This document shows, piece by piece, positions 2,463 through 19,268 of a stretch of 35,815 nucleotides of DNA. Positions within the stretch are counted from its first letter, which is position 1. Each line of letters opens with the position of its first letter. The DNA is from a virus. A program made the translations under genes and the position numbers. Location: positions 72,850 through 108,664 of IMG/VR virus record IMGVR_UViG_3300019487_000023; one strand, written 5' to 3'. The notes under the pieces were generated by a model. The model did not search any database. It was not told where the DNA came from and saw only the letters and a list, made by a program, of their open reading frames with translations.

Positions 2463-4718
2463 ATGAATCGTTTTAAAGAACCAGCGCAACTTCATAATCA
2501 CTCTAAATATTCACTGTTAGATGCTGTTCCATCACCAGAAGAATGGGTTGGATGGTGTTTAGAGAACAATACACCAGCGCTAGCAGTCACTGACCATGGT
2601 ACCGCCATCTCAATGTTTGATGCGTTGCGTGCTAAAGAGTTTATCAAAGAATACAATAAAGAACATAAGACTAATCATCCGTTGGATGCTGTAACCCTTA
2701 TCCCTGCCGTAGAGCTCTACGTCAAGATGAATGCAGAGGACAAGAGTCATCACCACATTACAGCTTGGGCTGCAAGCAAAGAGGGGTATTTCAATTTAAT
2801 GAAGTTGGCCTCAGTTGCGTACAACGATACAGTTTCGTACTTCGGTTCCGTTAAGGCTCGTGTTACGTTCGAAGACATTAAACAGTACAAGAAGGGCATT
2901 AAGTTCGGTACCGGCTGCATTGCAGGACCAATTGGTCATGCCTTCTGGCATGGAGATCTTAAGCTTGCAGAAGAGCGCTTTGTCATGTATAAGGAACTCT
3001 TCGGTGACGATCTCTATGTTGAATTTCACTGCGGTGACGTCACCCATAACTTCAATAAGAAAACCGGCAGCTTCGATCCTATCGAACCAGATGAATGCTC
3101 TTGCGATGGTAACAAGCAAAAGGGCTACAACATCTTCTTGTCTAAGATGGTTGATAAGTATGGTGGCAAATGCGTTCCAGTAACAGATGCCCATTTTATC
3201 AATCCTGAGGACAAGATCGTCCAGGATTGTTTGCTCAAGAACGGTAATAGCAACGGCTGGTACTTTCATGAGTCGTACCATCAGATGCGATCTGAAGAGA
3301 TGTTTACGAAGCTTAAGAGGCACCTTGGGAATTGGCTCACTGAAGATATGTTCATTCAGTGGGTCGAAAACACTTTTGAGGTGATGAATGCGGCTAAAGG
3401 CATCGAAGTTAAGTTCGACTATCATCTACCGTTGATCGATATTCCACAGGACATTAAAGACTTGCATCTAGAGGACTATAACCAGCAGACGCTTCAGTAT
3501 ATGATGCGCCTCATTAAGGATCATGGTCGTTGGAATGACTCGCCAGAGTATGTAGCGCGATTCAAGCAAGAGCTTGATGTCATCATGGATAATGAGAAGC
3601 TAAACTTCATCCCGTACTTCCTAGTATATGAGGATATCGGTAGGTTTGCGCGTTCACAGGGCGTTCTTCAGGGCGTTGCTCGTGGATCTGCGGGCGGATC
3701 TCTCATCTCCTACTATCTAAAAATCATTCATGTTGATCCCATTGCTGCTCACCTTCCATTTGAGAGATTCTTGTCTCATGCACGTATTAGAGCGGGTTCT
3801 TTCCCTGATATCGATGCCGATATCGGTGATAAGGCGCGTTCTCTTATCATGGATTATCTAAAGAAGAAGTATGGTTTGGGCTTTGCACAGATTGCCACCT
3901 TCAATAAGATGAAGACTAAGAATGCCATTAAGGATGCGATGTTTGCGCTATATGGGCGCAATCGCAACGATCAAGAAGTGATGGCAGTATGTAAAGACAT
4001 CGAAGATAGCCCTCAAGGCGTTGACGAACATGACTTTTTGTATGGATACACAGACCAAGAAGGTAACTATAACGCCGGTCAGATTGAGATTAATAAGCAA
4101 TTAGCCAATTTTTTCCAAACGTATCCAGATGTGGAAGCAATGGTTAAAAAGCTTATTGGTACGATCCGTGGTCTATCTAGACATGCGTCTGCATTCGTTA
4201 TTTCAACCATGGATCTATCTGCATCTCGTGTTCCAACCATGATGATGACTGATGCTGATCTTGGTGAAATTCAAGTCACTCAGTACGATGCAAAGATGGT
4301 TGAAAAATGTGGTCTAGTTAAGGCTGATATCTTATGTATTAAAACCCTAACAGCTGTATCAGAGTGTATCGATTTGGTGAAGAGAAATGCCAACATTAAC
4401 TACTTGATTGAGCAAGAAGGTTTGTCTCTCATATACCGTCTTCCGGAGGACAAGGATGTATATGCGGACTTCTATAACAAGCAGACCGATTCGTCATTCC
4501 AGTTTAATACTGAATTGATTAAGGGATACATTCAAGAATTCTGCCCTCTACAGAGAGCCGATCTATCTGCCATGACAGCCTTGTGTCGACCTGGTGCATT
4601 AGACGCACCCTTAGGTTTTAATGCAGTGGTTGTAGTAGAATATGAAGATGGAACCTCAATTGAAGTTCCAAAAGAGGAGTATTCTATATGGGTCGAAAAG
4701 TGGAAAAAACAACAATAG
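2463..4718 (+). CDS. dnaE: DNA polymerase III alpha (family C), N-terminal part: PHP and palm/catalytic domains
   Basis: LHNHSKYSLLDA, TDHG, TDAH, ARGSAGGSL, FERFL, PDIDAD, SRHASA, GLVKADIL and LCRPG motifs. Start placed at ATG 2463 rather than TTG 2448. Confidence 0.93.
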   Translation: MNRFKEPAQLHNHSKYSLLDAVPSPEEWVGWCLENNTPALAVTDHGTAISMFDALRAKEFIKEYNKEHKTNHPLDAVTLIPAVELYVKMNAEDKSHHHITAWAASKEGYFNLMKLASVAYNDTVSYFGSVKARVTFEDIKQYKKGIKFGTGCIAGPIGHAFWHGDLKLAEERFVMYKELFGDDLYVEFHCGDVTHNFNKKTGSFDPIEPDECSCDGNKQKGYNIFLSKMVDKYGGKCVPVTDAHFINPEDKIVQDCLLKNGNSNGWYFHESYHQMRSEEMFTKLKRHLGNWLTEDMFIQWVENTFEVMNAAKGIEVKFDYHLPLIDIPQDIKDLHLEDYNQQTLQYMMRLIKDHGRWNDSPEYVARFKQELDVIMDNEKLNFIPYFLVYEDIGRFARSQGVLQGVARGSAGGSLISYYLKIIHVDPIAAHLPFERFLSHARIRAGSFPDIDADIGDKARSLIMDYLKKKYGLGFAQIATFNKMKTKNAIKDAMFALYGRNRNDQEVMAVCKDIEDSPQGVDEHDFLYGYTDQEGNYNAGQIEINKQLANFFQTYPDVEAMVKKLIGTIRGLSRHASAFVISTMDLSASRVPTMMMTDADLGEIQVTQYDAKMVEKCGLVKADILCIKTLTAVSECIDLVKRNANINYLIEQEGLSLIYRLPEDKDVYADFYNKQTDSSFQFNTELIKGYIQEFCPLQRADLSAMTALCRPGALDAPLGFNAVVVVEYEDGTSIEVPKEEYSIWVEKWKKQQ

Positions 4719-5286
4719 ATGCAGCTATTGATTATTTTGTAAAAAACAACGTGCGTTTTATTGATATATCAGAGAAATTTAAAATCAGTACCAGTACTAT
4801 TTCTCAACATTTAAAAAAAAGAGGCATTAAGGTTGATTCTCAAAGAACAAGGAGAGGTAGGTCTTCTTGGAATTCTGGGAAAAATAAGTATAGCGATACG
4901 CGAGTTGCAAAAAATGCGAAGTCTTTATCTGATGCAAAAACAAAAACAGGACTTCGTTCGGGTTATCAGACAATATATGTCGATGAGTTAAAAAAGCGAA
5001 TTAGATTACATGAGTATGTTTGGTTTAAAAATACCGGAGTATGGCCAGATGGTAAAAATAGAGAACAAGTTCATCATATAGACGGAGATAAACTTAACAA
5101 CGATTTTGATAATCTCTTGTTGGTAAAGACAGATGAGCACTCTAAAATCCACAAAGAGTACGAGATAGTGTTTTTGAAGTTATTAAAGCTAGGTTTGATT
5201 AAATTTGATAAAATTGCAAGAGGTGTAGATTGGCGGAGCTTCGAAGAGTTGATAAAAAAATTAAAAGTGTAACTATTAGACCTTTG
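4614..5286 (+). mobile_element. AT-rich HNH cassette inserted in dnaE
   Basis: Composition shift. Bounded by Pro-Leu codons on both sides (4608-4613 CCCTTA; 5281-5286 CCTTTG). Removing it restores a contiguous RPGALDAPL-YDTTAAQYY..GVFVYQEEVM sequence. Confidence 0.65.
4688..5272 (+). CDS. HNH homing endonuclease (N-terminal HTH, HNH_3-like core)
   Basis: LHEYVW..QVHHIDGDKLNNDFDNL..EHSKIH; GAGGAG RBS. Overlaps both dnaE halves. Confidence 0.9.
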   Translation: MGRKVEKTTIDAAIDYFVKNNVRFIDISEKFKISTSTISQHLKKRGIKVDSQRTRRGRSSWNSGKNKYSDTRVAKNAKSLSDAKTKTGLRSGYQTIYVDELKKRIRLHEYVWFKNTGVWPDGKNREQVHHIDGDKLNNDFDNLLLVKTDEHSKIHKEYEIVFLKLLKLGLIKFDKIARGVDWRSFEELIKKLKV

Positions 5287-6594
5287 TATGACACAACAGC
5301 TGCCCAGTATTACATGGATGTTCGAAATGCAAAGCGCTCTGTAGAGTATTTACACGATGATTTGGCGCTTATCCTGAAGGACAGCAATGGAGTTTTTGTC
5401 TATCAAGAGGAAGTAATGAAGTTCCTCGTGGATATTGTTGGATACACATGGGAGGAGTCTGATCGTATTCGTGATGCTATCGCTAAGAAGAAACACGAAG
5501 TCATTATGGCTACGTTCGATAAGATCAGGGTGTCTTGTGCTGCCCGAGGATGGGACCATGGCGCTATTGAGACCGTGTGTCAGCAGATTCAAGCATTCTC
5601 ACGTTACTCCTTTAACAAGAGTCACTCCCATGCCTATGGTGAACTAGGATACATCACGATGTATTTGAAACATCATCATAAGCTAGAGTGGTGGTGCAGT
5701 ATTTTGAACCTAAGTTTGGATGACTCAGAAGAGAAGACACGTAAGTATATTGCGCTTCTTGGAGATTTGGTTAAACCACCTTCGTTGAAGCACCCAACTT
5801 CTAAGTTCGAAATTCGTGAAGTTGATGGCGAAAGAGTCATCATTACACCAATCTCTGCTATTAAGGGATGTGGTCCTGCGGTTGTTAATGAACTCTGCAC
5901 AAAGGGTCCATTTGCTTCTATCGAAGATCTCATTGAGCGTATCGATCATCGTAAGGTCAATACTGGCTGCATCTCGTCCTTGATTAAGGGTAGAGCAGCA
6001 GATGACATGATGGATGCTGATGTGCCTGTCTATAGCGATAGGAGACTTAAGTTCATTGAGGACTTTAAGCGTATCAGAGCAAAAGAAGTTAAGTTGCAAC
6101 CAGATGTGTTTAACGTAGATCCTCTCTCTATCTTTATGCAAGAGAAGGAATACAACACGGCGTTCAACAAAGCACTTCTCTCATCTCTTGAGATTGTGGA
6201 TGTATTAAAATCAAAGTGGCCAGCGCTTTCAACAACGGGTCGCGCAGGTGCGCCTCTCTTGATGAAGGTTGATGGCAAGCAGATTCCAGTGCTTGCAAAT
6301 TTAAAGGTTGCTGAAGGCTTTTTGAAGAAAGGCTATAGTAGCGAGATTGGACTCATCTTGCTGTATGAAGAGTCTACTGCTAAGAAGGGTATCTCTAAGA
6401 GAAGCGGCAAACAGTGGTCTAACTTGACAGTCCACCTATCTGATGGCTTCCATCAAATTGAGTGTGTAGACTGGAAGAAGAGCGTCGCACTAAAGTGGCC
6501 AAAGAATACCATCGTTTACGTAAGAGGTATATTGGAAGAGGGTTGGAAAACACCAGTCTCTTTGAATATCAAGGAAATCGAAAGGATTGAATAA
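5230..6594 (+). CDS. dnaE: DNA polymerase III alpha, C-terminal part (fingers, HhH, OB-like)
   Basis: GVFVYQEEVM, IRDAIAKKK, FSRYSFNKSHSHAY and AIKGCG motifs. TTG start preceded by AAGAGGTG. Confidence 0.9.
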   Translation: MAELRRVDKKIKSVTIRPLYDTTAAQYYMDVRNAKRSVEYLHDDLALILKDSNGVFVYQEEVMKFLVDIVGYTWEESDRIRDAIAKKKHEVIMATFDKIRVSCAARGWDHGAIETVCQQIQAFSRYSFNKSHSHAYGELGYITMYLKHHHKLEWWCSILNLSLDDSEEKTRKYIALLGDLVKPPSLKHPTSKFEIREVDGERVIITPISAIKGCGPAVVNELCTKGPFASIEDLIERIDHRKVNTGCISSLIKGRAADDMMDADVPVYSDRRLKFIEDFKRIRAKEVKLQPDVFNVDPLSIFMQEKEYNTAFNKALLSSLEIVDVLKSKWPALSTTGRAGAPLLMKVDGKQIPVLANLKVAEGFLKKGYSSEIGLILLYEESTAKKGISKRSGKQWSNLTVHLSDGFHQIECVDWKKSVALKWPKNTIVYVRGILEEGWKTPVSLNIKEIERIE

Positions 6595-7115: not shown

Positions 7116-7124
7116 TGGTATAAT
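7116..7124 (+). promoter_or_regulatory. Extended -10 promoter (TGgTATAAT) for SSB/recombination genes
   Basis: Perfect TGnTATAAT in an intergenic gap. Confidence 0.7.
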
Positions 7125-18625: not shown

Positions 18626-18634
18626 TGATATAAT
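18626..18634 (+). promoter_or_regulatory. Extended -10 promoter (TGaTATAAT), near-leaderless
   Basis: 7 nt spacer, then ATG at 18642. Confidence 0.65.
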
Positions 18635-18641
18635 GTTATTT

Positions 18642-19268
18642 ATGTCACAAATAGGCATTTATTGCATTAAAAACATAGAAAATAATAAGCGATATATAGG
18701 TTCGTCAAGAAACATTCCTGGCCGTTGGCGCGTTCACAAAAGTCGCCTAAAGCTAGGTAAGCATCACTCTTCTCACCTCCAAAAGTCCTACCTTCAAAAC
18801 CCTAATAAATTCGTTTACGAAATTCTAGAGTCTGTGGATGATATTTCTATGTTAGAAATTCGTGAGCAGTACTGGGTCGACTATTTTCAATCACATAAAA
18901 GTGAATATGGTTATAATGCTGTTCGTACCGTATCAACAATCGGTTCTCATAGAATGAAAGAACGTTGGGCAAAGCCAGGTGCCAAAGAAGCTCAATCTGT
19001 TCGTATGAGAAATATATGTTCTAGCACAGAACATAGACAAAAATTATCTATTGGGCATATTGAATATTTTAAGAACACTGAGAATAAGTTCAAAAAGTCT
19101 TTAGAGTCACCCCACCGCAAACCTGTAAAATGCGTTCAAACTAATCAAGTATTTGTCTCTATTAATCAAGCATCTAAAAACTTAGGTGTCTCTATTGTTA
19201 AAATAAGAGATAGTGCTAATGGCAAAAGAAAGTCAAATGGCGGAATTTCTTTTGAGTGGGCCAAATAA
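18642..19268 (+). CDS. GIY-YIG homing endonuclease (I-TevI-like, C-terminal NUMOD1-like HTH)
   Basis: GIYCIKNIENNKRYIGSS, RW..H, REQYW, GYN; C-terminal F.SINQASK.LGVS. AT-rich. Confidence 0.92.
   Translation: MSQIGIYCIKNIENNKRYIGSSRNIPGRWRVHKSRLKLGKHHSSHLQKSYLQNPNKFVYEILESVDDISMLEIREQYWVDYFQSHKSEYGYNAVRTVSTIGSHRMKERWAKPGAKEAQSVRMRNICSSTEHRQKLSIGHIEYFKNTENKFKKSLESPHRKPVKCVQTNQVFVSINQASKNLGVSIVKIRDSANGKRKSNGGISFEWAK

Follow-up and report, generated by a model that had tools for sequence, protein, structure and literature searches.

An HNH endonuclease cassette that splits a viral dnaE gene and tags both halves

Anatomy of an interrupted dnaE gene

The window analysed here is a stretch of 35,815 nucleotides forming part of a 108.7-kb virus record (IMG/VR IMGVR_UViG_3300019487_000023), and it carries a dnaE gene that is interrupted within its finger domain by a fully coding HNH cassette; all features described below lie on the + strand. 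The N-terminal half of the gene (N-half; positions 2463–4718) encodes the PHP domain, the catalytic palm and the first half of the finger, and ends in an acidic tag of 34 amino acids (N-tag; 4614–4715) that is not found in uninterrupted, or empty, alleles. The cassette encodes an HNH_3 endonuclease of 194 amino acids with an N-terminal HTH (4688–5272), the ATG of which overlaps the codon of an invariant Trp in the N-tag. Upstream of this start, and still within the N-tag, are an RBS-like GAGGAG for the HNH gene (4674–4679), which also encodes E-E of the tag, and a −10-like hexamer, TAGAAT (4636–4641), in the V-E-Y codons, a candidate promoter element for the HNH gene or the C-terminal half. 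The C-terminal half (C-half; 5230–6594), comprising the remaining finger, HhH and OB fold, begins at a TTG at 5230 and opens with a basic tag of 17 amino acids with the core KKIKSVT (C-tag; 5230–5280), bringing the total for the two tags to 51 amino acids. Its RBS-like motif, GAGGTG (5220–5225), lies within the HNH gene, and the 3′ end of that gene overlaps the start of the C-half by 43 bp (5230–5272).

The two halves are contiguous on family models. On the Pfam finger model the N-half covers positions 1–80 and the C-half 82–161, and on TIGR00594 the corresponding ranges are 3–641 and 643–926, with nothing lost between them. As PL is present only once in empty alleles, the insert can be sized at 673 bp (4614–5286 or 4608–5280); this is no multiple of 3, contains no non-coding base, and has a GC fraction of 0.33 compared with 0.41 and 0.43 in its flanks. 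Structure prediction for the N-tag returned a β-hairpin followed by a helix with a pLDDT of 89. These results bear out much of an earlier sequence-only reading, which held that dnaE is broken by an AT-rich and almost entirely coding insert of about 670 nt that adds an acidic hairpin-helix tag to the N-half, encodes an HNH nuclease with its own RBS, and supplies the C-half with an RBS, a TTG start and a basic tag. A dnaE gene of this kind is readily taken for broken during annotation. The insertion site is spanned by two contigs from DNA runs without a joint, and both may stem from the source sample of this DNA.

The DnaE of the window lacks the N-terminal exonuclease domain PF00929, which is fused to the protein in many relatives (the N-halves of L016, L021 and L036, and P0050–P0058). 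The window also holds further free-standing nucleases (681–1166, 1147–1674 and 18633–19268), comprising an EndoVII-type gene, an HNH gene and an ORF that by eye looks like GIY-YIG.

A family of cassettes at one dnaE site

We examined 37 related viral loci, 35 of which span both sides of the insertion site. The gene is uninterrupted in 31 of these 35, with 13 reading DAPLYDTT without a break, and the cassette is present in four rows (three distinct). Alignment to the uninterrupted relatives showed the tags to be absent from all 31 empty alleles, in keeping with the earlier view of them as foreign to DnaE. The insertion site is a loop of variable length in the empty alleles; three of them (L006, L015 and L024) carry as many as about 19 additional amino acids there, which might be scars of lost cassettes.

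Searches with the HNH and tag sequences placed all 17 close HNH rows with genomic context at the same dnaE site, each with both tags. These rows represent 10 distinct cassettes besides that of the window, for a total of 11, and the tag pair is kept in every one. Protein searches recovered further tagged halves as well as 48 HNH relatives listed without genomic context. The HNH motif is conserved among the cassette nucleases, and both dnaE halves are full-length and open in the window and in those cassettes with listed ORFs. One nuclease (L021:3234–3974) has a duplicated N-terminal HTH region in a cassette about 150 bp longer. More distant HNH relatives (L051, L052, L056, L057, L079 and others) often lie directly upstream of a gene that by eye looks like ThyX, and overlap its start. 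The sequence-only reading had also suggested looking for the tag pair around HNH genes in other host genes, and here it found no echo: tag and HNH searches, including those of representative proteins, returned no such case. Searches of viral loci and representative proteins likewise yielded no fused allele of the window type.

Because the 10 other distinct cassettes share both the site and the two tags and are dispersed over the DnaE tree, we consider the cassettes to be a mobile family. In a tree of DnaE C-halves (32 rows, 9 of them split, with L041, L100, duplicates and short rows left out), the split state requires 7 changes, of which at least 6 are forced, and 127 of 500 shuffles were equally low. 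This scattered pattern could also arise by repeated loss. We nevertheless prefer homing, because the C-half of the window is closer to empty alleles (69% identity) than to three split ones from the same search (47–52%). On these comparisons homing would be the likelier reading.

Tag conservation and resemblance to split inteins

Several features of the tags point to selection on the encoded peptides. Across the 15 codons of the N-tag hairpin in 11 cassettes, the tag frame contains no stops, compared with 17 and 18 in the other two frames; conservation peaks at codon position 2 (0.86, with 0.64 at the third position), and the Gly of the hairpin turn is invariant across synonymous codons. The uncorrected pN/pS of the hairpin is 0.61, compared with 0.30 in flanking dnaE. 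Charge is negative in 14 of 16 N-tags and positive in 15 of 16 C-tags, the exception being the acidic C-tag of cassette L102. The C-tag core is kept although the overlapping C-terminus of the HNH protein varies, and in some cassettes this core lies partly or wholly beyond the HNH stop, yet is still retained. Across 10 loci the tags followed neither the HNH gene nor dnaE clearly more closely than the other (ρ = 0.38, P = 0.016 with HNH; 0.38, P = 0.05 with DnaE-N; 0.25, P = 0.13 with DnaE-C). Charge covariation between the tags was not significant (N position 9 with C column 15, r = −0.83; permutation P = 0.34 over 66 pairs), and Pfam and PHROGs searches with the tags gave weak, unrelated matches only.

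The same codons coincide with signals at the DNA and RNA levels, a point that the sequence-only reading overlooked. The invariant Trp of the N-tag falls on the HNH start codon and its E-E on the HNH RBS, while V-[EK]-Y encodes TAGAAT, TAAAAT or TAAAGT (TAnnnT) in 11 of 11 cassettes, hexamers that resemble the phage's own TGGTATAAT motif. The C-half start overlaps a Trp codon of the HNH gene in the cassettes inspected, and an RBS-like motif with an NTG start precedes the C-half in 9 of the 10 cassettes printed. Since N-tag codons double as −10-like hexamer, RBS and start codon, the conservation of the tags is partly confounded, and much of it need not be at the protein level. The tag DNA thus has a double duty, with protein-level selection that is genuine, if moderate. 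There was no −35 match for the TAGAAT hexamer at 4636–4641, and a two-hexamer promoter scan found 2 candidates against 3.0 expected, none at the N-tag. A TG-n-TATAAT motif upstream of genes (window positions 7116, 11232 and 18626) is probably the extended −10 promoter of the phage. We also considered and rejected an RBS-sequestering hairpin, as folding exceeded that of shuffles in just 2 of 5 N-junctions (z about −2.4 and −2.5).

A distant HNH relative in locus L064 (3066–3970) interrupts dnaE at a second site. Searching with the N-tag of this locus brought up cultured SSU5-like phage-plasmids, where both tags are joined within a single reading frame. The second-site insert matches 927 plasmid records, of which 6 weak matches were sampled along with viral loci; the site is empty in 20 of 21 rows. 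It is split with an HNH gene in L064 and L260, with NUMOD4-HNH in L259 and L261, and with the nuclease absent in three loci (L257, L258 and L263), and it is re-fused in all 57 of L200–L256 as well as in L262. When a profile of 11 second-site tags was compared with the PDB, the top seven matches were DnaE inteins (best E 3.9e-6), at about residues 60–100. For the fused form, structure prediction gave a single domain (pLDDT 84). Its top eight Foldseek matches were inteins, none of which reached E 0.001, and in a wide structural search inteins scored Z 4.2–5.4 among dominant helix-pair matches, above which they did not rise. Residues 22–74 of the model align to an intein with an rmsd of 2.7 (Z 4.2), and the C-strand lies within the aligned part. 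We conclude that the second-site tag pair is an intein relic. Like the window cassette, the second-site cassettes split the dnaE finger with an HNH-type gene, have a hairpin N-tag and a C-tag of the K-I-x-S-V type, and lack catalytic intein residues; unlike it, they occupy another site, bear a longer N-tag, which contains a second hairpin and is clearly homologous to inteins, and include nuclease-lost and re-fused alleles, of which none was found at the site of the window.

The resemblance to split inteins is strong at the second site and moderate for the window tags. A position-specific scoring matrix (PSSM) of the N-tag hairpin was run on 9 real inteins, and in 6 its top score fell on the hairpin that precedes TxxH, in 4 of these with a segment P of 0.0003; these four scores were equalled by 1 of 86,105 background windows, which is probably the tag of this DNA itself, included in the background. 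The C-tag matrix, of 9 columns, had its top position at the first strand in 3 of the 4 IntC (P 0.001, 0.09 and 0.16). These matrix results should be interpreted cautiously, given that columns were picked after the resemblance had been seen, the inteins were collected with one query, and such hairpins are common. Profile comparison aligned the window N-tag through its hairpin only, both to the second-site tag (P 0.0017, probability 15%) and to a real IntN (P 0.0007, probability 27%). The window-type tag profile matched no intein in the PDB at E ≤ 10, and 42 matches among 1.8 billion proteins were mostly repeat-protein hairpins and included no intein; the short IntN of an atypical split intein ranked fourth for the tag model at a non-significant E of 1.6. 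An equivalence of the N-tag with intein block A was rejected, since this was never the top matrix position in the 9 inteins. The two elements matched by the window tags are the same two as at the second dnaE site. In the Hint fold, the hairpin before block B and the first IntC strand pair with each other, which is consistent with the structural alignment of the second-site model to an intein.

From these sequence comparisons we give even odds to the window tags being relics of the association interface of a split intein, namely the hairpin before block B and the first IntC strand. A broader scenario, which we hold more tentatively and at somewhat less than even odds, is that split inteins decay to non-splicing clasps that retain the fragment-capture strands and that homing nucleases take such clasps along as an antidote to their own insertion, which would let them invade genes of replicative polymerases; two dnaE sites would document this, with the pair of 34 and 17 amino acids as the most reduced and with the promoter, RBS and start of the nuclease written into it. 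If true, this would provide a stage that has been missing from accounts of how inteins evolve. The earlier statement that no intein is present accordingly stands in its catalytic sense, every catalytic motif being missing, and possibly fails as a statement about ancestry, given the resemblance of the tags to split-intein pairing elements.

Proposed mechanism, alternatives and known systems

Our best explanation, to which we assign a probability of roughly 0.64, is that a mobile HNH cassette splits dnaE, that translation likely yields each half on its own, and that the tags likely pair as a clasp so that the polymerase is rebuilt without splicing. The HNH protein would cut empty dnaE alleles, into which the cassette would then be copied. 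The promoter, RBS and start of the HNH gene would be carried inside the N-tag, and the RBS and start of the C-half inside the HNH gene, and the dnaE halves would likely be produced as two separate proteins. The acidic hairpin-helix may then capture the basic strand to give a small clasp through which the finger domain would be rebuilt non-covalently. This capture is modelled on split inteins, in which an anionic region of IntN and a cationic one of IntC are described as mediating association (PMC11766414), and by that analogy docking of the two tags is likely.

It is unlikely, though worth serious consideration, that the tags are instead read-through by-products of expression signals, tolerated as tails while native finger contacts assemble the halves. 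The coincidence of invariant residues with the ATG, RBS and −10-like hexamer, the variable-length loop at the insertion site and the modest hairpin pN/pS are all compatible with this. A promoter, however, needs no open frame, and yet the tag frame is free of stops; the turn Gly is invariant through synonymous codons, and the C-tag core is kept even where it extends past the HNH stop. The tags might also matter without binding each other, for example by capping surfaces, helping folding or aiding higher-order assembly. We regard this as improbable. In its favour, the N-tag alone yields a confident model, and the Aeh1 tails discussed below are described as dispensable for heterodimer formation (PMC3045599); against it, the second-site pair exists in fused form with its C-strand inside the intein-aligned part, an analogy from another site.

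Restoration of a full-length DnaE by removing or skipping the insert, through an unrecognised intron or a bypass at the ribosome, has a very low probability in our estimate. PL stands at both ends of the insert, so precise removal would restore the empty-allele sequence; the two copies, however, differ in their codons, and most other cassettes show no such repeat. Rfam returned five sub-threshold matches, none to an intron family, and together with the lack of non-coding bases this agrees with the sequence-only reading, which saw no obvious space for a group I intron core. The paucity of N-junctions more stable than shuffles and the C-half's own RBS-like motif and NTG start also argue against removal. 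T4 gene 60 has a 50-nt ribosomal bypass, whereas no comparable conserved structure was seen in the window cassettes. There is scarcely any likelihood that the tags act as a minimal, active split intein and ligate the halves. They do resemble intein elements, and in 5 of 11 loci the conserved Asp is followed by S or C, but the window carries Ala there, the pair totals 51 amino acids, and the tags lack TxxH, block F, an N-terminal nucleophile and a terminal Asn followed by C, S or T. PF14890 had no match in the genome, and NCBIfam intein models did not match the tags, while the IntN of L113, used as a control, matched TIGR01445. The window cassette is, by these tests, neither an active split intein nor an intron. 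Just as remote is a dead polymerase, with the phage depending on the host enzyme; nothing speaks directly in its favour, and each half is open and of full length, the two being contiguous on the family models, as they also are in the cassettes with listed ORFs.

Non-covalent reassembly of a split polymerase has its nearest counterpart in the nrdA-a/mobE/nrdA-b arrangement of phage Aeh1, as the sequence-only reading had proposed, and the evidence supports a window system that works like it. In both, an essential enzyme is split by an HNH gene without splicing, and AT-rich foreign tails of opposite charge are added, one to each half (PMC3045599). The Aeh1 tails are described as essential for activity, which falls about 2000-fold on their deletion (PMC3045599). 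The charge polarity is reversed relative to the window, and the Aeh1 tails are given there as lacking database matches, whereas the window tags are a conserved family of at least 11 cassettes moving among phages. The host gene also differs, being the replicative DnaE, and here sequence evidence bears on intein ancestry. That such tails derive from an element is already in print for Aeh1, and an origin from a degenerate intein is an alternative raised by its authors (Crona et al., PMC3045599). The dnaE cassette extends this single case to a mobile family within a replicative polymerase and makes the suggestion that the tails are decayed split inteins testable. If so, selfish elements in essential genes would have a fourth exit besides RNA splicing, protein splicing and bypass, and each tag pair would represent a natural heterodimerisation module of very small size. 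A literature search covering titles and the openings of abstracts, with few subscription journals, returned no description of the cassette or of an intein relic serving as a clasp.

Two further systems share parts of this organisation. T4 gene 39/mobA/gene 60 is likewise an HNH-split enzyme with tail-like extensions (PMC3045599). Fractured genes, as described by Dassa et al. (PMC2677866), combine a split intein with a free-standing endonuclease, dnaE loci included; complete split inteins around a nuclease also occur in terminase and UvsW genes among our loci (L113:170–1930, L322 and L323), which served as controls. The order of N-half, endonuclease and C-half is the same in fractured genes as in the window, and there too the 3′ end of the endonuclease overlaps and creates the downstream start (PMC2677866). 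Their IntN of 88–105 and IntC of 33–54 amino acids are reported with all catalytic residues (PMC2677866), whereas the window tags measure 34 and 17 amino acids, carry no catalytic residues and flank a nuclease of the HNH type.
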